Shown: positions 3,996 through 14,958 of the stretch, in pieces
Layout of the letters: each line of letters opens with the position of its first letter
Numbering within the stretch: position 1 is the stretch's first letter
NCBI GenBank assembly: GCA_016763795.1
Contig: JAESTF010000333.1
Span: 1-42,826 of the forward strand
Source of the DNA: Flavobacteriales bacterium
GTDB lineage: Bacteria > Bacteroidota > Bacteroidia > Flavobacteriales_E > Vicingaceae
Length of the DNA: 42,826 nucleotides
Direction: 5' to 3'
Translations under genes and position numbers: made by a program
The notes under the pieces: generated by a model
The model's input: the letters and a program-made list of their open reading frames with translations, nothing else
Told to the model about the DNA's origin: nothing
Database searches by the model: none

Positions 3996-6143
3996 ATGCA
4001 ACAACTAAACCACATTCCTTTGTTACGTTTGTTAATCCCATTTATTCTCGGAATAATTGGAGTTGTTTACCTCAAACCAAATTCAGATTATCTCATTTTA
4101 AGTTTGGGAATTTTAGTAATTTTTTTTTTCGGTTTACTATTAGTTAAAAAAATAAATGCTAACTATAAAATAAGGTGGCTATTTGGAATATTCATTTACG
4201 CCAGTTTAATTTTATCAGGAGCTTCCTTAACCAGTTTGAAATATAAAAACACCAATAACACATCTAAACTTTTAACCGAAAAAAACAACCAATTATTAAT
4301 AGGAGAAATAATTGAACCACCTCAAAATAAAGCTAAAAGCATAAAAACGGTACTGAATATTAAAGGAATTAAAACACAAAGTAGTTGGATTGAAGGAACT
4401 GGAAAAGTGATTATTTACTTACAAAAAGATAGTTTATCCGATAAACTAAATGTTGGCGATGTAATTTCTTTTGAACCCAAGTTGAAAAATGTTCCTCCAC
4501 CAAAAAATCCAAATGAATTTGATTTTAGGAAATACCTTTCATTTCATTTAATACATCAACAAGCTTATTTGCGCTCTAATAATTGGAAATTAGTACAACA
4601 ATCTCCAACAACAGGTATTTTTAAATTTGCGAATAATAGTCGTAAATACTTAATTAAAACATTAGAAGAAAAAGGAATTAAAGGAAAAGAACTGGCGGTT
4701 GCATCTGCTTTAATTTTAGGGTATAAAGATAGTATTGATGCTCAACTAAAAAGTGCTTACTCAAGTGCTGGAGCAATGCATGTGTTAGCTGTTTCGGGTT
4801 TACATGTGGGTGTTATTTTTTTAATATTTAGCCAATTATTTTCATTTTTTGAGAAAATTAAATATGGTAAAATTATTAAAGGAGTTTTACTTATTATTAT
4901 ACTTTGGGTATATGCATTGCTTACAGGTTTATCACCATCAGTAATGCGAGCAGCAACTATGTTTAGTTTTATCGTTGTAGCAAAAATGACGAATAGAAAT
5001 TCTAGTTTCTTTAATACATTAGCTGCATCTGCATTGGTTTTACTTATTTATAATCCACTGTTAATTATGGAAGTTGGTTTTCAACTTTCTTATATGGCTG
5101 TTATTGGTATTGTAATTATTCAGCCTTGGATAAACGATAGAGTTACCTTGAAATACTGGTTGCCGCGTAAAGTTTGGGAAATAACAGCAGTTTCTATTGC
5201 CGCTCAAATTGCAACATTCCCGTTGGGATTATTGTATTTTCATCAATTTCCTAATTATTTTATGCTCTCTAATTTAATTGTAATACCACTTGCTATAGGT
5301 ATTTTGTATTTAGGGATAATTACCCTAAGTCTATCATTTATACCTGTGGTTGGCGAATATTTAGCACTCGGTCTAAATTATATTATTCAGTTTTTAAATG
5401 CCTCGGTTAATTTTATTGATTCATTACCTTACTCTTTATCAGAAAACATACGTTTTAGCGTTACGGATACTTGGCTCGTTTATCTTTTTATTATTTTCAT
5501 CATTACATTAATTGCTTATCGAAAATTTAAGTACCTATTGTTTGGATGTTGTTTTATTGCCGTCTTTTTGATGTCAACTTTCTGGGTAAGTTTTTCGGGT
5601 TTGGATCAGCGGAAAATTATTATTTATAACATACCTCAATTCTCTGCCATTAATTTTATTGATGGAGCTGATAATATTTTAGTTTCAGACATTAAGCTGA
5701 CTCAAAATAGGAGTAAGCTAATGTTTCACGTTCAAAATAATTGGATTAATAATGGTGTCGATAAAGAAAAGGTAGTGAACTTAGACCATCTCATTAAAAA
5801 ATATTCACTTTCTAATATTTATAGAATATCTAATAGGAACCTCTTTACAAAAAGAAATTATTTTCAATTCTACGACACTAAAATTGCTATAATTGACAAC
5901 AAATATCAACTTAGCCACAGTAGTGATAAATTGAATATTGATTTACTGTTGTTAACGAAAAATACACAACTTTCTATCAAAGAAATTCTTAGTCAATTTA
6001 ATCCTAAACAAATAGTAGTTGATGCTTCAAATTCTTCTTATACCTCACAACGTTTAAAAGATGAAGCAAATGAATACGAAGTTAATTGTTGGGTCGTTTT
6101 GCTGGATGGGGCTTACATTAAAAATATAAATCAAATTACCTAA
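3996..6143 (+). CDS. comEC: ComEC/Rec2 family DNA-internalisation competence protein
   Basis: Polytopic membrane protein of 715 aa. N-terminal OB/DUF4131-like region and competence-domain motifs (GAMHVLAVSGLHVG, LSPSVMRAATMF). The C-terminal ~180 aa shows no HxHxDH metallo-beta-lactamase motif. Confidence 0.85.
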   Translation: MQQLNHIPLLRLLIPFILGIIGVVYLKPNSDYLILSLGILVIFFFGLLLVKKINANYKIRWLFGIFIYASLILSGASLTSLKYKNTNNTSKLLTEKNNQLLIGEIIEPPQNKAKSIKTVLNIKGIKTQSSWIEGTGKVIIYLQKDSLSDKLNVGDVISFEPKLKNVPPPKNPNEFDFRKYLSFHLIHQQAYLRSNNWKLVQQSPTTGIFKFANNSRKYLIKTLEEKGIKGKELAVASALILGYKDSIDAQLKSAYSSAGAMHVLAVSGLHVGVIFLIFSQLFSFFEKIKYGKIIKGVLLIIILWVYALLTGLSPSVMRAATMFSFIVVAKMTNRNSSFFNTLAASALVLLIYNPLLIMEVGFQLSYMAVIGIVIIQPWINDRVTLKYWLPRKVWEITAVSIAAQIATFPLGLLYFHQFPNYFMLSNLIVIPLAIGILYLGIITLSLSFIPVVGEYLALGLNYIIQFLNASVNFIDSLPYSLSENIRFSVTDTWLVYLFIIFIITLIAYRKFKYLLFGCCFIAVFLMSTFWVSFSGLDQRKIIIYNIPQFSAINFIDGADNILVSDIKLTQNRSKLMFHVQNNWINNGVDKEKVVNLDHLIKKYSLSNIYRISNRNLFTKRNYFQFYDTKIAIIDNKYQLSHSSDKLNIDLLLLTKNTQLSIKEILSQFNPKQIVVDASNSSYTSQRLKDEANEYEVNCWVVLLDGAYIKNINQIT
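6026..6074 (+). repeat. Left copy of an att-like direct repeat, inside the comEC 3' end
   Basis: By hand alignment, 43 of 49 nt are identical to 14848-14896. This includes the exact 19-mer caacgtttaaaagatgaag (6048-6066 = 14870-14888). Confidence 0.6.
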
Positions 6144-7474: not shown

Positions 7475-8259
7475 ATTAAACCAAAAATCAAAAAGCATTG
7501 AATTATTGATAATGACTAAATGGCTTGTTGTTATTAGAGTGTTAATTGATAGTATAATTCTTAGAGTCTTTATTCAGAACAAATTAACTAACCAACTTAT
7601 TCCCGCGGGTTATTTGCATATAATTAGTCATTATGTTACTTTTCTTGTAATTCTTAACATAATAATTTAAATAAACGCTCTTAATTGTTGTACATCTATT
7701 ATAAGTATAATGTTAAGGTATATATATGATATAGGAGACTTAAATTATATAAAGAACTGTTTTAGGTAATTCTTTAACATTTACTAGATGGATTAGGTTT
7801 TTTTGTTTTGAATTCATTGAAGTTGAAAATGAAAATATTTTCTCAATCAAGAAAGTTATGTTATTATAGATGGAAAACGGAGGAGTATAGAACACTATAC
7901 TTTCACCTAAATACAAAGGAAATGATAGTCCGGATGTAAAAGTAATTACAACTTGATACACTAAAAATGCTCAAAGAGAATAAACCACAAAAATACATAG
8001 AAAGTTTATGAATATATTGTTTCAAAACGAAATAATTTATTATATCAATTGATTTTCAGTGGTTTAGCAGTCATTCTTTTGCGAAGAATATAGCATAGTA
8101 AAACCTAATATCACTTGGACTTATTTTATTAGATCGAATTAATACGGTATGATACGTAAACACATTTGTGTGATTTTACTGATGAATAATATTCTTATAA
8201 TTTTTAATTTTTGGTCATTATTTAATTTAGAATAATTAAAAATAAAAAAAAGTAATTCT

Positions 8260-9126
8260 ATGTGTTCAGATATACCAAATTTTAAAGTCCAAAAAGAAAA
8301 TGTATGTATTTATAATGATGAATTTTCAAATTCTCGGAAGCCTATAAATATTGTTCAACTTAATCTTTTAAAAAATGCTGGGTGTGCAGGCGGATGTAAA
8401 TTTTGTGGACTTAGTATTTCTTCAGAAGTTGATCGAAAGACGACTGCAACTGAGAAGGACTTTCAAAATTCATTTAATGATGCTCGTAATTCAAATTCTC
8501 GTTTAGAACTTGTATTTCCAAGTGTTGGTGCTAATCAAATGGAAGTACTTGGGTTGTTGTCTAAAATGACTGATGTTATTAATGATAATTCAGATATTGA
8601 ATTGGCAGTTAATCCTGGAATTTGTACACGTGAAGATTTTTATTCACAACTAGCAGAACTGGGAGTCTCTAGATATAGAAATAACTTAGAAAATTCCCGT
8701 AGATTGTTTAAGGAGCTTGTACCTAAACGGTCACTTGCTCAAGACTCAAAATTACAATCAATGGATCTTGCACGAGCTGCAGGTTTAAAAGTAGATACTG
8801 GTTGGTTGTGCGGACTAGGTGAAAATGAAGCAGATATTAAAGATATGCTAGAGCTTTTAAATGTATCAAATCCAGATTCAATAACCTTAAATTTTTTTGA
8901 TCATCGTGAGAGCGCTGAAGATTTTGATTATACAACTCCTTCCCGTCAGACAGGGTTAGAAAGAATAACAGTACTCCGCACTCATTTTCCTGAAGTTGAA
9001 ATTACTTTAGGAGGTGCTCATGGTTTATGGCTTGGTTCAAAAGCAATTGATATCCCACAGATTAACGGGGTATATGTTGGAAGATTTCTTGACCATGGTT
9101 TACGAGAAGAAAGTAAAAAGCAGTAA
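8260..9126 (+). CDS. Radical SAM enzyme, divergent BioB/HydE/PylB-like subfamily
   Basis: CX3CX2C motif CAGGCKFC (C42/C46/C49, nt 8383-8406). Colinear with BioB landmarks: YRNNLENS vs YNHNLDTS, AAGLKVDTGWLCGLGEN vs AGIKVCSGGIVGLGET, DSITLNFF vs ESVPINML. Only 288 aa, and the BioB auxiliary-cluster Cys positions are not conserved. Confidence 0.8.
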   Translation: MCSDIPNFKVQKENVCIYNDEFSNSRKPINIVQLNLLKNAGCAGGCKFCGLSISSEVDRKTTATEKDFQNSFNDARNSNSRLELVFPSVGANQMEVLGLLSKMTDVINDNSDIELAVNPGICTREDFYSQLAELGVSRYRNNLENSRRLFKELVPKRSLAQDSKLQSMDLARAAGLKVDTGWLCGLGENEADIKDMLELLNVSNPDSITLNFFDHRESAEDFDYTTPSRQTGLERITVLRTHFPEVEITLGGAHGLWLGSKAIDIPQINGVYVGRFLDHGLREESKKQ

Positions 9127-9174: not shown

Positions 9175-10401
9175 ATGAAAACTAAAAAAACACCTCAAGT
9201 AGAGGTTCTTATTATTGGAGGAGGACAGGCTGGGTTGGCGATGAGTAATTGTCTAACGGGGTGTAATATTTCACATGTTGTAATAGAACGTGGAAAAATT
9301 GCTAATCGATGGAGGAATGAAAGTTGGGATTCACTCCGTCTTCTTACCCCTAATTATCAAACCCGTCTACCAAATTGGTGCTACAAAGGAAAAGACCTGA
9401 ATGGTTATATGAGTGTTCAAGAGTTAATTTCGTTTTTAGAAAACTATGCAAAATCTTTTAATTCTCCGATCAAGACTGGAGTTATTGTAGAGTCTGTTAC
9501 ACAACGAACAAAAGGATTTCAAATATGTACAGATGCAGGGACATGGGAAGCAAAATCTATAGTAATTGCTACTGGGCATTGTAATACACCATTTGTACCT
9601 AAATTTTCTAAGAATTTAAATTCAGAATACAAACAATTAATTTCTCATCAATATAGAAATCCTAAACAGATAGGTTCGGGAAAGGTATTGATTGTAGGTG
9701 GAAGTGCAACTGGAGCACAAATTGCTGAAGAATTGATAAATGCTGGAAGAAACGTAACATTATCAGTAGGCCGACATCGAAGACTTCCGCGTAGTTACCG
9801 TAATAAAGATATATTATGGTGGGTAGAAAAAATGGGAATTTTTTGTCAACCTGCAGATCCTGAATCTGAGCGGAATTACCCTGCTCCTCAGCTTATAGGA
9901 TCAGTTGATGGAAGATCTCTTGATGTTGGAATTTTACAAAACTTAGGAGTAAAGCTGGTTGGTAGAGTAACTAGTATAAAAGATCATTTAATACAATTTG
10001 ATTCTAATTTGGAACACGATGTTAATCATGCAGAAGAGGAGATGCGTGAACTTCTAGCTCGGATAGATGCTTATGCGACAAAACAAGGGTTCGATGAGAA
10101 AACCGAACGAATCAATTCGGTAAAAATAGAACCTACAGCAGTTGAAATTAATTTAAAACAAGATAATTTTGAAACTATAATTTGGGCAACAGGATATCGT
10201 AGAGCCTATGATTGGTTAAACATCGATATGCTTGATAAGAATGGTGAATTACAACATGTATCAGGGATAACAGAACAACCAGGAGTTTATGCATTAGGAT
10301 TGCGTAGACAACGTAAATATAATTCAAATTTTATTGATGGAGTTGGTGAGGATGCATCATTTCTTACGAGTCATTTAAAAAACTACATTTCAACCATATG
10401 A
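9175..10401 (+). CDS. FAD/NAD(P)-dependent oxidoreductase, flavin-monooxygenase (CzcO/FMO-like) type
   Basis: FAD fingerprint VLIIGGGQAGLA, WDSLRLLTPN motif, second dinucleotide site VLIVGGSATGAQIA, and a C-terminal ATGY motif (IWATGYRRAY). Confidence 0.8.
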   Translation: MKTKKTPQVEVLIIGGGQAGLAMSNCLTGCNISHVVIERGKIANRWRNESWDSLRLLTPNYQTRLPNWCYKGKDLNGYMSVQELISFLENYAKSFNSPIKTGVIVESVTQRTKGFQICTDAGTWEAKSIVIATGHCNTPFVPKFSKNLNSEYKQLISHQYRNPKQIGSGKVLIVGGSATGAQIAEELINAGRNVTLSVGRHRRLPRSYRNKDILWWVEKMGIFCQPADPESERNYPAPQLIGSVDGRSLDVGILQNLGVKLVGRVTSIKDHLIQFDSNLEHDVNHAEEEMRELLARIDAYATKQGFDEKTERINSVKIEPTAVEINLKQDNFETIIWATGYRRAYDWLNIDMLDKNGELQHVSGITEQPGVYALGLRRQRKYNSNFIDGVGEDASFLTSHLKNYISTI

Positions 10402-11768
10402 GGATGTTAGGTGGAAAATCCATAAAAGAACTAGGAAGAATGATTAGGACAGAAGGTCTTAAATGTGAGGAATTAACTGAAACGATACTGTCTGATATAG
10501 AATCTCGTAACAATCATCTCAAAGCTTTTGTGAGGACTACCGCTGAAAGAGCTTTTGAAGAATCTCGTTTCGCCCAAATAGAACTAGATAATGGTATTGA
10601 TAGGGGACCTCTTCATGGAATTCCTTACGCGATTAAAGATTTGTTTGATGTTGCCGGAGAACCGAATAGTGCTGGCACACCTTTATTAGAAGACAATATA
10701 GCAACAAAAGATGCAGATATTGTAACACGTATGAAGCGTTCGGGAGCGGTGTTAGTGGGGCAAACAAATACGAGTCCGTTAGGAGCTACTATTTTAGGAA
10801 TCAATCATGCATTCGGTACACCTCATAATCCTTGGAAAAAAGAAGCTTTTATTCCAGGTGGATCATCTAGTGGTTCAGCTGTAGCTGTAGCTTCTGGACT
10901 AATTCCATTTGCATTGGGTACTGATACAGGAGGTTCAATACGAGTACCTGCAGCTATGTGTGGAATCGTTGGTCTTAAAACAACCGTAGGAAAGATTGAT
11001 GTAAGTGGAATGAGTCCACTTTCTCCTACATACGATTCTATAGGCACCTTAACCCGATCAGTTAATGATGCATTATTGGTGTATGGAGCATTACAAGATG
11101 AACCAATAGATTGTGGTAAGCGTGTAGAAAAATTAAAGATTGGCCTTTGTGAAAATATATTTTTTGATGAAATAGAATTAGAAGTAAAAAATGCAGTGTT
11201 AGATGCTGCTAATACCCTTGCTAGTCTGGGTACAGAAATTTGTTCACTTAAATTACAGGAGGTTGACATTATCTATGATCAGATTAAAGAAACAAGTTTA
11301 ATCGCCACAGAAGCATATCCATTACATAAAAAAATAATTGAAAATTCGAGTATGGATTGGGTTACAAATTGGCTAAAAGTAGCCAGTAACTATTCAGTTG
11401 AACAAGTAGTACATTCACAAAAAAAAATAAAAGAACTTTCATTTCAACTCGATATTCGCACTAAAAATCTAGATGCCATAATCGTGCCTACTACACCAAT
11501 TGTTGCAAAGTTGGTTTCTAGCTGCGATTCATATGAATCTCACGCTAAGATATCTTCATTAATTTCAAGGAATACCCAAATTGGTAATATGGTAGGATGG
11601 TGTGGCATTGCACTCCCTTGTGGTATTAGTCAAAATGGTCTTCCTATAAGCCTTTTAATTTACACTGGTGCAAATAATGAGCATACTGCATTTAGTATTG
11701 CTAAATCCCTTGAGCAAGCCTTATTAATGAAGTTAGGTAGCTTAAAGCCACCATATATTTTTAATTAG
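10398..11768 (+). CDS. Amidase-signature (AS) family amidase
   Basis: Catalytic Lys context PYAIKDLFDV. AS signature GGSSSGSAVAVASG and nucleophile region GTDTGGSIRVPAA. The start overlaps the upstream stop by 4 nt (ATGA at 10398-10401). Confidence 0.85.
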   Translation: MRMLGGKSIKELGRMIRTEGLKCEELTETILSDIESRNNHLKAFVRTTAERAFEESRFAQIELDNGIDRGPLHGIPYAIKDLFDVAGEPNSAGTPLLEDNIATKDADIVTRMKRSGAVLVGQTNTSPLGATILGINHAFGTPHNPWKKEAFIPGGSSSGSAVAVASGLIPFALGTDTGGSIRVPAAMCGIVGLKTTVGKIDVSGMSPLSPTYDSIGTLTRSVNDALLVYGALQDEPIDCGKRVEKLKIGLCENIFFDEIELEVKNAVLDAANTLASLGTEICSLKLQEVDIIYDQIKETSLIATEAYPLHKKIIENSSMDWVTNWLKVASNYSVEQVVHSQKKIKELSFQLDIRTKNLDAIIVPTTPIVAKLVSSCDSYESHAKISSLISRNTQIGNMVGWCGIALPCGISQNGLPISLLIYTGANNEHTAFSIAKSLEQALLMKLGSLKPPYIFN

Positions 11769-11821: not shown

Positions 11822-13075
11822 ATGAACGATATAAATAAAGAAACCTTATCAATAAAATTTTCTGAAACGCGAGAAGAAGCAAAAGAGGAATACGAAAAAC
11901 ATTTAGGCTCTTTTTTACGAGATAGTCCTGTTGTTGCAAGACGGGGTGATCCTGATGTTGCTGATTTGTTATTTGGAGACCCTCATGATCCTTCATTAAC
12001 TGGTCTTGGAGAGATACTACATACACAAGTTGATATTAGCCAAGAAAAAGGTTATCGATATGTACACCATATGGAAGAAGCACGAGCAGCAGCGGCAAAG
12101 GCTCTTTCACAACGTACTAGTTTAGATTTTGCAGTTGAAGATTTATTTCTTACAACAGGAGCTTTCTCTGGTTTAGTAACATGCCTGCAAGCTTTGTGCG
12201 AAAAAAATTCAGAAGTAGTATATTTTAGTCCTCCTTGGTTTTATTACCGATCTATGATTAAATCTGTAGGAGCTATTCCGAAAGGAGTTGATCTTAACCC
12301 TGAAGATTGGTCGATTCCTTTTGATAAATTGGCAGAGGCTATTGGTCCTAAAACAAGTGCTATACTAGTAAATTCACCACATAATCCAAGTGGAAAAATT
12401 TTTTCTGATAGTGAACTTTCAGAACTAGCTCAAGTTGTTTCAGCTGCGAGTAAACGATTGGGGCGCGATATTCCCATAATTTCGGATGAAGCTTACTCTC
12501 GTATTGTTTATGAATGTTCGCATGCCCCCACACCAGCAAAATATTATCCGGCAACCATTATAATATACACTTATGGTAAAACACTTCTAGCACCCAGTTT
12601 ACGTTTAGGTTATATGGTACTTGCTCCAGGATTTCCTGGTGCACTTAAGATGAGAAGAATGTTTGATGCGATTCAACCTATGGGAGGCTGGCTACTTCCT
12701 AGTTGTTTGGTACAGAGAGCACTGCCTGACCTAGAGTTGTTATGTGTTGATCTAGTTCAGCTTAAACATCGCAGGGATAAATTAGTTGAGGCGTTAAGAG
12801 AAGGAGGTTATACAGTAATCCCAGCTGAGGGTACATTTTACATGTTGGTAAAAAGTCCACAGTTAGATGACGAAGCTTTTTCACGTTACCTTGAAAGTCG
12901 TAATGTTTTAGTTCTTCCGGGATCAACACTAGAAGTTCCTGGTACTTTTCGAGTGTCACTTACAGCTTCTGATGAAATGATAGATCAAGCTTCAGAGGTC
13001 TTTAAATCAGGATGGCAACCCTTTTTTATTAATTATAATGAAGAAAAATACGATAAAATAAAACTCAATAAATAG
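11822..13075 (+). CDS. PLP-dependent aminotransferase, class I/II fold
   Basis: Motifs LVNSPHNPSGK and ISDEAYSRIVY. Putative PLP-lysine in YTYGKTLLAPSLRLGY. C-terminal FRVSLTAS. Confidence 0.85.
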   Translation: MNDINKETLSIKFSETREEAKEEYEKHLGSFLRDSPVVARRGDPDVADLLFGDPHDPSLTGLGEILHTQVDISQEKGYRYVHHMEEARAAAAKALSQRTSLDFAVEDLFLTTGAFSGLVTCLQALCEKNSEVVYFSPPWFYYRSMIKSVGAIPKGVDLNPEDWSIPFDKLAEAIGPKTSAILVNSPHNPSGKIFSDSELSELAQVVSAASKRLGRDIPIISDEAYSRIVYECSHAPTPAKYYPATIIIYTYGKTLLAPSLRLGYMVLAPGFPGALKMRRMFDAIQPMGGWLLPSCLVQRALPDLELLCVDLVQLKHRRDKLVEALREGGYTVIPAEGTFYMLVKSPQLDDEAFSRYLESRNVLVLPGSTLEVPGTFRVSLTASDEMIDQASEVFKSGWQPFFINYNEEKYDKIKLNK

Positions 13076-13264: not shown

Positions 13265-14251
13265 ATGAAATTAGCAACAATAAATAATAATACAAGAGAT
13301 GGCGAATTAGTAATAGTTAATAGAGCATTAACAAAAGCTGTTCGAGTTCCTGAAATTGCTTCAACCATGCAAATGGCAATTGACAATTGGGGGAGTACTG
13401 AAGAAAAACTTAAAAATGTTTATGATTCGTTAAACTTAGGAACCGTAGATAATGCATTTGATTTTACAGAAGAAGGAGTTATGGCGATACTTCCAAGAGC
13501 ATATCATTGGGTAGATGCAAGCGCTTACGTAACTCATGTTGAGTTAGTTAGGAAGGCAAGAAATGCAGAGCTACCTGGTTCTTACTGGACAGATCCATTA
13601 GTGTACATGGGGGCATCTGATGCTTTTATTGGTCCATATGATGACATAGAGATAGAGAATGATGAATGGGGAATTGATTTTGAATCAGAAATTGCTGTAA
13701 TTACAGATGATGTACCGGCTGGAGTTGATTCTAAAGAAGCATTAAATCATATTAAATTAGTTACAATCGTTAATGATGTTACGCTTAGAAATTTAATTCC
13801 TCAAGAATTAGCCAAACAATTTGGGTTTTATCAATCAAAACCTTGGACCGCTTTTGCACCTGTTTCTGTAACATTAGATGAACTTGATGAAGCTTGGAAA
13901 GATGGAAAACTTCATTTACCTATACATTCAACTTTAAATGAAGAATTAATTGGCTCTCCAAATGCTGGAATTGATATGACTTTTGATTTTGGTGAATTGA
14001 TTGCTCATGCTGCAAAAACACGTTCTTTAATGGCAGGAACTGTCGTTGGTTCGGGTACAGTAGCAAATCAAGGAAGTCCTAATGGATCTAGCTGCCTTGC
14101 AGAACTAAGATGCTTAGAAATAATTAAAGATGGTGAAGCTTCAACTCCATTTATGACTTTTGGAGATAGAATTGAAATTGAAGTGAAAAATGATAGTGGT
14201 CATTCAATTTTTGGAAAAATTAATCAAGTTGTAAAACAATATAAAAAATAA
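13265..14251 (+). CDS. Fumarylacetoacetate hydrolase (FAH) family protein
   Basis: 328 aa. Typical N-terminus MKLATI...DGELVIV. Metal-ligand contexts IDFESEIAVI and VNDVTLRN. GTVVGSGTV near the C-terminus. Separated from the upstream gene by a 189-bp AT-rich spacer. Confidence 0.85.
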   Translation: MKLATINNNTRDGELVIVNRALTKAVRVPEIASTMQMAIDNWGSTEEKLKNVYDSLNLGTVDNAFDFTEEGVMAILPRAYHWVDASAYVTHVELVRKARNAELPGSYWTDPLVYMGASDAFIGPYDDIEIENDEWGIDFESEIAVITDDVPAGVDSKEALNHIKLVTIVNDVTLRNLIPQELAKQFGFYQSKPWTAFAPVSVTLDELDEAWKDGKLHLPIHSTLNEELIGSPNAGIDMTFDFGELIAHAAKTRSLMAGTVVGSGTVANQGSPNGSSCLAELRCLEIIKDGEASTPFMTFGDRIEIEVKNDSGHSIFGKINQVVKQYKK

Positions 14252-14847: not shown

Positions 14848-14896
14848 TTCAAACTCATCTTACACTTCTCAACGTTTAAAAGATGAAGAAAATGAA
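14848..14896 (+). repeat. Right copy of the att-like direct repeat
   Basis: 43 of 49 nt identical to 6026-6074. No similarity to comEC was detected immediately upstream of 14848. Confidence 0.6.
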
Positions 14897-14958
14897 CTCT
14901 AACAAAGTTGGTAGGCGATTTTATTAGAAGGTGATTTTACCCAAAAATATTTAACACC
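14848..14958 (+). pseudogene. comEC: Displaced, degenerate remnant of the comEC 3' end (last ~35 codons)
   Basis: Translates colinearly as NSSYTSQRLKDEENEL*QSW*AILLEGDFTQKYL. The intact end reads NSSYTSQRLKDEANEYEVNCWVVLLDGAYIKNIN. There are two in-frame stops and no upstream ORF. Confidence 0.55.

Follow-up and report, generated by a model that had tools for sequence, protein, structure and literature searches.

Introduction

Enzymes with the BioB fold belong to the radical SAM proteins and carry out sulfur insertion, lysine rearrangement and hydrogenase cofactor assembly, which are among the hardest C-H functionalisations. Every BioB-fold subfamily characterised so far has brought new chemistry. 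Biotin synthases themselves fall into type I (E. coli, 1r30) and type II (V. parvula 8vdw, B. obeum 8vcw), and these share with the protein described here the barrel, the CX3CX2C motif, a ribose motif of the N153/D155 type, the GxIxGxxE motif and an equivalent of N222 (N211). The type II enzyme holds a [4Fe-5S] cluster through C52 (at the position of E. coli S43), C138, C198 and R268 (PMC10813225). A second described system with related components is the Nit1C cluster, which Pseudomonas needs to assimilate cyanide and nitriles (PMC8567248).

Here, we analyze a radical SAM gene and its neighbours in a window of 42,826 nucleotides, the whole stretch of contig JAESTF010000333.1 (Flavobacteriales bacterium) that was studied. 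An earlier note on this DNA had described the gene product as a minimal BioB-like protein without the auxiliary-cluster ligands of biotin synthase. We find that the open reading frame is intact and that its product, called P0001 below, is a BioB-fold radical SAM protein; it represents a small, uncharacterised new subfamily of BioB-fold radical SAM enzymes and no new kind of system. Literature on the gene combination, on BioB-like enzymes and on MSMEG_0568/0569 yielded no characterisation of this radical SAM family.

Results

P0001 Is a Radical SAM Protein With a Complete BioB Barrel

P0001 scores 35.5 bits against the Pfam radical SAM model PF04055 (cut-off 29.5), which places it in the superfamily. 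The SAM-binding core is in place: N142-L-E144 of the ribose motif on β4 aligns with BioB N153-L-D155, and G181-W-L-C-G-L-G-E188 on β5 aligns with the BioB version of GxIxGxxE, GGIVGLGE. The features of the locus are collected in Table 1.

Table 1. Coordinates of the features of the radical SAM locus within the window.
Feature	Position	Strand	Remarks
comEC 3'-end direct repeat, left copy	6026..6114	+	89 nt; 73% identical to 14848-14936; 8822 nt apart
Radical SAM ORF, 288 aa (P0001)	8260..9126	+	Open frame, no stops; PF04055; TIGR00433 sub-threshold
N-terminal extension, 28 codons	8260..8343	+	No counterpart in most homologues
CX3CX2C motif (C42-x3-C46-x2-C49), radical SAM [4Fe-4S] cluster ligands	8383..8406	+	Invariant in 150/150 tabulated related radical SAM proteins
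E83, at BioB C97 position	8506..8508	+	Glu invariant in family; Glu also in sister clade
NPGIC motif, last residue C122	8611..8625	+	Loop after β3; six residues past BioB C128 position (A116)
RYRNNLE, counterpart of BioB YNHNLD (ribose and substrate motif)	8671..8691	+	Invariant in family
D179 (BioB C188 position), then GWLCGLGE (GxIxGxxE motif) with C184	8794..8823	+	C184 invariant
H254, at BioB R260 position	9019..9021	+	Tyr in 20/21 members, His in P0001; Arg in almost all BioBs tabulated
D278-H279, at BioB T292-T293 position	9091..9096	+	FLDH motif invariant
FMO-like FAD/NAD(P)H flavoprotein, gene 2	9175..10401	+	PF13738 1e-29; after radical SAM gene in 12/12 loci
Amidase-signature amidase, gene 3	10398..11768	+	PF01425 8e-80; conserved position; 4-nt overlap with flavoprotein gene
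Class I/II PLP aminotransferase-fold enzyme, gene 4	11822..13075	+	PF00155 1e-40
FAH-family protein, optional gene 5	13265..14251	+	PF01557 and PF18288
comEC 3'-end repeat, right copy	14848..14936	+	Degenerate; pair brackets inserted segment

The structure model of P0001 reached a pLDDT of 81.5 and a pTM of 0.81. By sequence profile, the nearest solved structures are 8vdw (7.6e-15) and 1r30 (1.2e-10), followed by PylB (9e-6); by fold, the nearest are again BioBs (Foldseek E about 1e-15 to 1e-14). In the VIA structural match, the superposition on BioB covers 250 residues with a deviation of 2.7 Å (Z 24-25), and PylB and HydE reach Z values of about 20. The resemblance to BioB across the core barrel that had been seen by eye is thus borne out. 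"Minimal" is too strong a word for a protein with the full BioB barrel, in which only the terminal extensions are missing, about 45 N-terminal and 40-60 C-terminal residues. That P0001 is shorter than BioB holds for most BioBs but not for those of the Campylobacterota type (~279-282 aa; NF006308 profile length 279).

The family core measures 258-278 aa, and homologues mostly begin at MNI.QL, which corresponds to residue 29 of P0001; a few carry predicted N-terminal extensions of their own. Where other members have the start Met codon ATG, the P0001 gene has ATA (Ile29, 8344-8346). The usual family start codon is therefore absent from the copy in the window, which we count against our main reading. 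The 28 residues that precede this position are modelled as disordered (pLDDT <50).

The Cluster Ligands and Substrate Contacts of BioB Are Replaced

To read the ligand columns, P0001 was aligned with E. coli BioB (1r30) and with type II BioB (8vdw, 8vcw) in HMMER, both pairwise and by profile. None of the type I [2Fe-2S] ligands is retained in P0001, which has E83 for C97, A116 for C128, D179 for C188 and H254 for R260. The type II ligand columns are occupied by V32 (S43 position), A116, D179 and H254. The true BioB of the same genome keeps all four ligands in the same alignment. Within the family, the C188 column holds Asp or Glu and the R260 column Tyr or His.

The three strings on which the earlier note had built its case, LELVFPSVG (82-90), ELAVNPG (114-120) and LKVDTGWLCGLGE (176-188), are all found in the translation. 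Its first observation stands, as LELVFPSVG has no Cys and places E83 at the C97 position. ELAVNPG has no Cys either, with A116 in the C128 column, but the note overlooked C122, which follows two residues downstream in NPGIC. At the third site the Cys is indeed shifted, with D179 in the C188 column and C184 five residues further on. With both the type I and the type II ligand sets replaced, the absence of a BioB-type auxiliary-cluster site is upheld, and neither alignment nor structure brought such a site to light.

The substrate side has changed as well. Of the desthiobiotin contacts in 1r30, which we take to be N151, N153, N222 and T292/T293, only N153 and N222 are kept, as N142 and N211; N151 is replaced by R140 and T292/T293 by D278/H279. 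Nearly all BioBs tabulated have N or H in the N151 column and mostly TT in the last two. The replacement set (E83, D179, Y/H254, R138, R140, D278, H279 and C122) is invariant in the family, and the combination of E83, C122, R140, D179, C184, Y/H254, D278 and H279 occurred only in this family among 150 related radical SAM proteins.

Two Cysteines Are Invariant Outside the Radical SAM Motif

Across 21 aligned family members, C122 and C184 are invariant (21/21) and are the only invariant cysteines outside the CX3CX2C motif. C122 is also found in the sister clade P0031-P0034, which lacks C184; the latter is specific to the family. In the secondary structure of the model, C122 lies in the loop after β3 and C184 at the end of β5, within the adenine-binding GxIxGxxE motif. 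Judging from general radical SAM architecture, both would sit on the SAM-binding face, away from the BioB cluster site. Their invariance, which also speaks against our main reading, leaves room for a non-canonical cluster, a persulfide or a redox-disulfide site.

P0001 Belongs to a Small Family Outside BioB

BioB is the best sequence match of P0001, but the scores are low: 98.8 bits against the BioB model TIGR00433 (cut-off 225) and 76.5 against NF006308 (cut-off 377). Scanning the genome with the BioB model gave 98.5 bits for P0001 and 402.3 bits for the true BioB of the same genome (at C325). About 30 homologues, 56-73% identical, were found in Bacteroidota, Cyanobacteria, Nitrospinota, Acidobacteriota and metagenomes. 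In the tree they group tightly in a single clade that a long branch sets off from BioB (SH-aLRT 100, stem length 2.64). This clade joins the sister group P0031-P0034 (SH-aLRT 99), apart from the clade of type I and type II BioB (98). Placement inside bona fide BioB, a result that would have told against the earlier note, was not seen. The tree is unrooted and comes from a quick search, and its exact topology around the family is uncertain because of the long stem branch. P0001 thus differs from BioB in standing in a separate clade, alongside a true BioB in the same genome and in another gene context. Taken with the aligned ligand columns, these data support the view that P0001 is something other than a biotin synthase and lacks an auxiliary-cluster site of the BioB type. 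The interpretation in the earlier note is supported in this part; the mutase or lyase role that it preferred stays conjectural. The label "biotin synthase" on these homologues is wrong.

When 1.84 billion cluster representatives were searched exhaustively, the whole family appeared as one 50%-identity cluster (477 bits); the next matches scored 108-132 bits and the BioB continuum at most 88 bits. None of 23 genomes of the same genus has an orthologue, tblastn against 72,556 plasmids gave no match, and no fused forms were seen among longer proteins, the last being weak evidence. Pattern-based genome scans, which undercount, recovered three species representatives and six metagenome loci; Pedobacter cryoconitis CP014504 carries the full cassette described below, yet its species representative was missed by the pattern scan.

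The Gene Heads a Conserved and Mobile Cassette

All 12 related loci, which represent at least four phyla, share one gene order: radical SAM gene, FMO-like flavoprotein gene, amidase gene, aminotransferase gene. The radical SAM gene always comes first, and biotin genes adjoin it in none of these loci. A fifth gene usually follows. It encodes an FAH hydrolase in five other loci (72-79% identical copies) and a CysK-like enzyme in five more (71-75% identical between phyla). The aminotransferase is among the best conserved cassette genes (64-75% identity between loci). Against TIGR04046 (MSMEG_0569 family) the flavoprotein scores 341 bits, below the cut-off of 498. It has a single invariant cysteine, in ATGHC, and a role as redox-disulfide reductase was rejected since it has no CxxC pair. 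Complex prediction for the radical SAM protein and the flavoprotein with FAD and [4Fe-4S] gave a score of 0.00, which is uninformative on binding either way. Neither the 785-nt spacer that precedes the gene nor the regions upstream of six related cassettes gave a relevant Rfam match to a riboswitch or other known RNA; the only matches, elsewhere, were to a tRNA and to part of a group II intron.

In the window, the direct repeat of the comEC 3' end lies on either side of the inserted segment. The cassette of Acaryochloris is flanked by transposases, and that of Pedobacter cryoconitis has a transposase gene upstream at a distance of a few kb. From these features and from the missing orthologues in the 23 genomes of the genus, we read the cassette as an accessory, horizontally moving unit. 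In one lineage (P0008, P0021, L027) it is surrounded by genes for a fatty-acyl-AMP ligase, a carrier protein, a PPTase, condensation and NRPS proteins and an MFS transporter and lies within a lipopeptide NRPS cluster; in L028, formyltransferase and MFS transporter genes are directly upstream. We take these neighbours as a hint of a biosynthetic role. Since the NRPS association is confined to this single lineage, most cassettes stand alone, which counts against that role.

Discussion

We put at about an even chance the reading, whose chemistry we infer, that P0001 is a single-cluster, substrate-radical BioB-fold enzyme of a small-molecule pathway, without a sacrificial sulfur-donor cluster. The [4Fe-4S] radical SAM cluster would then work alone, and reductive cleavage of SAM would yield a 5'-deoxyadenosyl radical that removes a hydrogen atom from its substrate, a small, charged molecule resembling an amino acid. 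This substrate would occupy the cavity that in BioB holds the [2Fe-2S] cluster and desthiobiotin, with acidic residues binding its ammonium group and two arginines its carboxylate. The substrate radical would be resolved without sulfur insertion, either rearranging or fragmenting as in PylB or being quenched by hydrogen transfer from C122. The flavoprotein, the amidase and the PLP enzyme could then convert the product to a non-proteinogenic amino acid or another building block of secondary metabolism. The pathway is probably one of amino acids; the class of the substrate is judged solely from the charge pattern of residues that were placed by homology to BioB.

A more detailed version of this reading is possible but doubtful. 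It holds that the [2Fe-2S] pocket has been rebuilt as a carboxylate/Tyr(His) site (E83, D179 and Y/H254, with D278 and H279) that would bind a mononuclear metal or a cationic substrate group. The enzyme might then catalyze a radical reaction new to the BioB fold on a common amino acid; for example, it could rearrange the carbon skeleton as PylB does, or epimerise or reduce the amino acid by way of Cys122. This reaction would be the committed step of a mobile pathway whose product, a new non-proteinogenic building block, would serve an NRPS in some hosts. If true, the BioB fold would gain a radical transformation so far undescribed for it.

A catabolic or nitrogen-scavenging route would account equally well for the amidase, aminotransferase and FAH genes, and this weighs against our main reading. 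In such a cassette, P0001 would be a lyase or would open a ring or chain in an imported amide or amine compound, the amidase and aminotransferase would free nitrogen, and the FAH hydrolase would cleave a diketo or oxo acid. These three enzymes make up a typical degradative set; Nitrohelix has TctCBA transporter genes immediately upstream of its cassette and a LysR regulator further upstream, and a GlcD-like oxidase gene is directly upstream in L019. Moreover, the nearest named family of the flavoprotein, MSMEG_0569, is part of the Nit1C cluster, but the radical SAM family of that cluster, TIGR04043, gives no match to P0001. Most cassettes lack a transporter or regulator; in one lineage the cassette lies within the NRPS cluster, and in two the start of the radical SAM gene is overlapped by an MFS gene. 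In addition, oxygen-sensitive radical SAM enzymes are unusual in the catabolism of aerobes such as Pedobacter. We regard the catabolic route as unlikely.

Sulfur insertion into a substrate other than desthiobiotin seems to us distinctly improbable. Such an enzyme would use as donor a small Fe-S cluster or persulfide at C122/C184, together with H279, D278 or E83, and sulfur would come by way of the cysteine made by the CysK-like neighbour. The invariance of the two cysteines fits this idea, as does the fact that the sulfur-inserting BioBs are closest to P0001 by sequence and fold. BioB ligand positions can also move, as the comparison of type I and type II has shown (PMC10813225), and the CysK-like gene follows the cassette in five loci. 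However, known auxiliary clusters take three or four ligands and P0001 offers two extra invariant cysteines only, one of which, C184, is missing from the sister clade that has C122. The inferred placement of both on the SAM-binding face would also speak against a donor site, and half of the cassettes have FAH in place of the CysK-like gene.

A third true type of biotin synthase, or a functionless, decaying BioB paralogue, is highly improbable: some sources annotate the homologues as biotin synthase and BioB is the best family match, but P0001 stays below threshold on both BioB models, its desthiobiotin-contact residues are replaced, a full BioB is encoded elsewhere in the genome and the gene was never beside biotin genes in 12 loci. 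The 56-73% identity over four phyla, with about 75 invariant columns, points to purifying selection for a different function and not to decay.

The single-cluster, substrate-radical reading that we prefer concerns a small, sharply bounded subfamily whose redesigned cavity is easily read. As the same three partner enzymes travel along, the whole pathway could be cloned as one fragment of ~5 kb for a heterologous host. The practical value is moderate; many radical SAM subfamilies are still uncharacterised.

Comparison With Known Systems

Our favoured mechanistic model is PylB (methylornithine synthase, 3t7v), which has a BioB-like barrel but no sulfur-donor cluster and rearranges a free amino acid by radical chemistry. 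Its structural match to P0001 reaches Z 20.4, but PylB (~350 aa) is remote in sequence (TIGR03910: 33.3 bits, cut-off 348.2), and its neighbours pylC and pylD are absent beside the radical SAM gene. HydE, the [FeFe]-hydrogenase maturase, is likewise a BioB-like barrel, and its essential chemistry uses the radical SAM cluster only; it differs from P0001 in its cavity residues, its sequence match is weak (E about 5e-3) and no hyd genes are nearby. P0001 also scores far below the cut-offs for HmdB (TIGR03957: 34.3 against 320.9) and lipoyl synthase (TIGR00510: 20.5 against 310).

A radical SAM protein, a C-N hydrolase and a flavoprotein of the MSMEG_0569 type also occur together in Nit1C (MSMEG_0565-0572; NitA-H of Pseudomonas pseudoalcaligenes). 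The hydrolase is a nitrilase there and an amidase here, and the GNAT and AIR-synthase-like genes are absent from the cassette. Scanned with TIGR04043 (MSMEG_0568 family), the whole genome gave no hit at E <= 0.001, and the family was likewise absent from scans of P0001, P0005 and P0014. Thus, the flavoprotein alone is common with Nit1C, and the radical SAM-flavoprotein module is not shared as a pair.

The nearest relatives in the exhaustive search are the uncharacterised sister clade P0031-P0034, which has E83, the NPGIC cysteine and an FLNH-type motif in common with the family and, like it, is devoid of the BioB Cys ligands. Unlike the family, it retains Arg at the R260 position and is without C184, R140 and D179. 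Its context is entirely different, with transglutaminase-core, DegT aminotransferase and FemAB genes on the contigs. Glu at the C97 position is also common to several orphan BioB-like groups, which hints at a wider branch of the BioB fold without the auxiliary-cluster ligands of BioB.

A distinct radical SAM subfamily

The radical SAM gene of the window (Table) has an open frame encoding a 288-aa protein, P0001, whose own residue numbers are used here; the three strings quoted from it in the earlier note are all found in the translation. Its SAM and [4Fe-4S] apparatus is intact, with the radical SAM motif C42-x3-C46-x2-C49. Pfam assigns it to the radical SAM superfamily with 35.5 bits (cut-off 29.5), while its top NCBIfam model is biotin synthase (BioB) at 98.8 bits, below the curated cut-off of 225; the PylB, HmdB, and lipoyl synthase models give 20-35 bits. 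Most homologues start at MNI.QL. The window has an isoleucine codon in place of their start Met, and its ORF opens at an ATG 28 codons upstream, resulting in an N-terminal extension that is predicted to be disordered; translation may begin there or at a non-canonical codon.

A word-indexed search returned about 24 close relatives (56-72% identical) and then nothing until the BioBs at 24-26%. When 1.84 billion cluster representatives were searched exhaustively with a profile, the family gave a single 50%-identity cluster (477 bits), followed by four intermediate proteins, P0031-P0034 (108-132 bits), and by a BioB continuum at 88 bits or less. In a maximum-likelihood tree of 57 rows (unrooted, quick search mode), the family members group as a single clade (SH-aLRT 100) whose stem measures 2.64 changes per site and which joins P0031-P0034 (99), apart from the clade holding both BioB types (98); because the stem is long, the exact attachment is uncertain. 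The earlier note had set the protein apart from bona fide BioB and the tree agrees, since the family is not nested within it. The family is a new, sharply delimited group inside the BioB/PylB/HydE branch, and we are highly confident that it is a distinct non-BioB subfamily, although some sources misannotate its members as biotin synthase. Our literature search found a description of neither the family nor the gene combination of its cassette.

Replacement of the BioB cluster ligands

We aligned the single window sequence, and then a 21-member family profile, to solved BioBs with HMMER. In both alignments, the E. coli [2Fe-2S] ligands C97, C128, C188, and R260 fall on E83, A116, D179, and H254, so that no ligand cysteine is present. 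The type II BioB [4Fe-5S] cluster is held by C52 (E. coli S43 position), C138, C198, and R268 (PMC10813225); the S43 position is V32 in the window protein, so the type II ligands are missing as well. The genome also encodes a BioB of its own (contig C325, 402 bits), which served as an internal control and shows all four ligands when aligned beside the window protein. Together, these results confirm the earlier observation that the auxiliary ligands are missing, and a BioB-type auxiliary cluster is very likely absent.

In an alignment of 21 homologues, E83, N211, T249-L-G-G252, and R138-Y-R-N-N-L-E144 are invariant, the last being the counterpart of BioB YNHNLD with R140 replacing N151. F276-L-D-H279, where BioB has YLTT, is likewise invariant. 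Position 179 is Asp or Glu in all members, and position 254 is His only in the window and Tyr in every other member. Across 150 related radical SAM proteins this residue combination, which includes the two cysteines described next, is unique to the family; in the columns of C188, R260, and 292/293, the BioBs among them have Cys, Arg, and mostly TT, respectively. In place of the sulfur-donor site and desthiobiotin pocket of BioB, the family has a set of other, charged residues that is strictly conserved.

Two further cysteines are invariant: C122 in the NPGIC motif and C184 inside GWLCGLGE. The earlier note had quoted the shifted C184 but missed C122, two residues past its string. Additional cysteines occur in some members. 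The C-termini of P0005, P0008, P0009, and P0011 (4 of 21) end in one or two (...SAC, ...GCC, ...GSC), and an Acidobacteriota-like subgroup (P0015-P0018, P0020) has a third extra cysteine at the BioB C128 column (ELCVNPGIC).

An AlphaFold2 model built from the family alignment (pLDDT 81.5, pTM 0.81) has a barrel of the BioB type. Its best Foldseek hits are type II and type I BioB (E 1e-15 to 8e-14, TM 0.72-0.78), followed by PylB, HydE, and ThiH, and VIA-align gives Z 24-25 against BioBs (250 residues, 2.7-2.8 A), about 20 against PylB and HydE, and about 18 against ThiH and HydG. The protein had been described as shorter than BioB. It indeed lacks the N-terminal segment of about 45 residues and the C-terminal tail, which accounts for its length without any reduction of the barrel, but Campylobacterota BioBs are equally short. 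The model places C122 in the loop that follows beta-3, and C184 within the adenine-binding motif, where beta-5 ends. Judged from this secondary structure and general radical SAM architecture, the two are unlikely to form one cluster site. The protein probably has no second cluster of any kind.

The gene belongs to a mobile cassette

Using the window proteins as tblastn queries, we found, in each of the 12 related loci with DNA, the order radical SAM, FMO-like flavoprotein, amidase-signature amidase, and class I/II aminotransferase-fold enzyme on one strand. Compared with their counterparts in the window, these proteins are 58-73%, 47-60%, 45-59%, and 64-75% identical, respectively. The radical SAM gene is a fixed member of a cassette of enzyme genes that are transferred together.

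Downstream there is usually a fifth gene, which shares the strand of the cassette in the window but is inverted in the related loci. Its product is a FAH-family protein in the window as well as in L003, L013, L020, L027, and L028 (72-79% identical), and such a gene is also present on the contigs of the family members P0008 and P0021. In L001, L004, L018, L025, and L026 it encodes a CysK-like PLP enzyme, whose score of 342 bits with the cysKM model is just below the cut-off of 344; these copies, 71-75% identical, span Nitrospinota, Cyanobacteria, and metagenome contigs, and the FAH gene is absent where they occur. The two forms look like variants of the cassette. L019 and L029 have neither.

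Table. Coordinates of features in the window and in related loci
Feature	Location	Strand	Remark
Radical SAM gene (P0001)	window 8260-9126	+	
AT-rich spacer 5' of the gene	window 7475-8259		785 nt
Codon at the homologues' start Met	window 8344-8346		ATA (Ile29)
comEC 3'-end repeat, copy 1	window 6026-6114		89 nt
comEC 3'-end repeat, copy 2	window 14848-14936		89 nt
CysK-like gene	L001:14650-15561	-	
CysK-like gene	L004:7057-7968	-	
CysK-like gene	L018:15097-15813	-	
Flavoprotein homologue	L021:9001-10230	+	50% identical
More divergent CysK-like gene	L021:10809-11693	-	
Group II intron domain match	L020:7850-7946		42.6 bits (cut-off 40)
Sister-clade locus	L006:3687-7858		
Sister-clade locus	L009:4715-10427		

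Named sources are Candidatus Nitrohelix vancouverensis, Acaryochloris, several Pedobacter species, and a Pyrinomonadaceae MAG. Pattern scans matched 3 of 185,579 species representatives and 6 metagenome loci; these counts are lower bounds because P. cryoconitis CP014504 has the cassette (58% identity, all motifs intact) while its species representative was unmatched. We found no orthologue among 23 genomes of the window's own genus, which have BioB alone (24-29% identity); the host genome itself is a MAG with 74.6% completeness. A direct repeat of the comEC 3' end (73% identical copies, 8822 nt apart) brackets the cassette segment, consistent with an island inserted at the comEC end, and the G+C of the cassette is slightly above that of its flanks. 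Transposases flank the Acaryochloris cassette; P. cryoconitis (L020) has a gene for a Mutator-type transposase a few kb upstream of its cassette. Together, these features show that the radical SAM gene is accessory and horizontally mobile. Close to the 5' side of the L020 cassette there is a match to a group II intron domain, and in the spacer 5' of the window gene we found neither a convincing ORF nor an Rfam match at E <= 1.

Proposed chemistry and related systems

We propose that the protein uses a single cluster and forms a radical on a small, zwitterionic substrate resembling an amino acid. This substrate radical might be resolved without sulfur insertion. It might rearrange or fragment, as in PylB, or it might receive an H atom from C122, which looks catalytic because it is kept even in the sister clade. 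We regard such rearrangement or H-transfer chemistry on an amino-acid-type substrate as a tentative proposal.

The set of amidase, aminotransferase, and FAH protein would also suit catabolism, while NRPS and MFS contexts favor biosynthesis of a building block. In the P0008/P0021/L027 lineage, the cassette lies amid genes for a fatty-acyl-AMP ligase, carrier protein, PPTase, condensation, NRPS, NusG paralogue, and MFS transporter, and in L028 a formyltransferase and an MFS gene are directly upstream. Nitrohelix has TctCBA genes immediately upstream and, beyond them, a LysR regulator.

The window protein does not match the radical SAM family of Nit1C, and a link to that family was rejected. The best named family of the flavoprotein is nevertheless MSMEG_0569 of the Nit1C cluster (341 bits, below the cut-off of 498), and its N-terminal half is like type II FMOs (4usr, 4a9w). 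The flavoprotein family, with thousands of members, greatly outnumbers the radical SAM family; at the Acidobacteriota locus L021, a flavoprotein homologue lies near a CysK-like gene, and the radical SAM, amidase, and aminotransferase genes are absent.

The sister clade P0031-P0034 has E83 and the NPGIC cysteine in common with the family but keeps Arg at the R260 position and lacks C184; Glu at the C97 column also occurs in several other sub-threshold BioB-like groups. The gene context of the clade differs from the cassette as well. P0031 and P0032 adjoin transglutaminase-core, DegT aminotransferase, and FemAB genes, and their loci, L006 and L009, represent another uncharacterised BioB-like system that keeps the Arg and lacks the BioB cluster cysteines.
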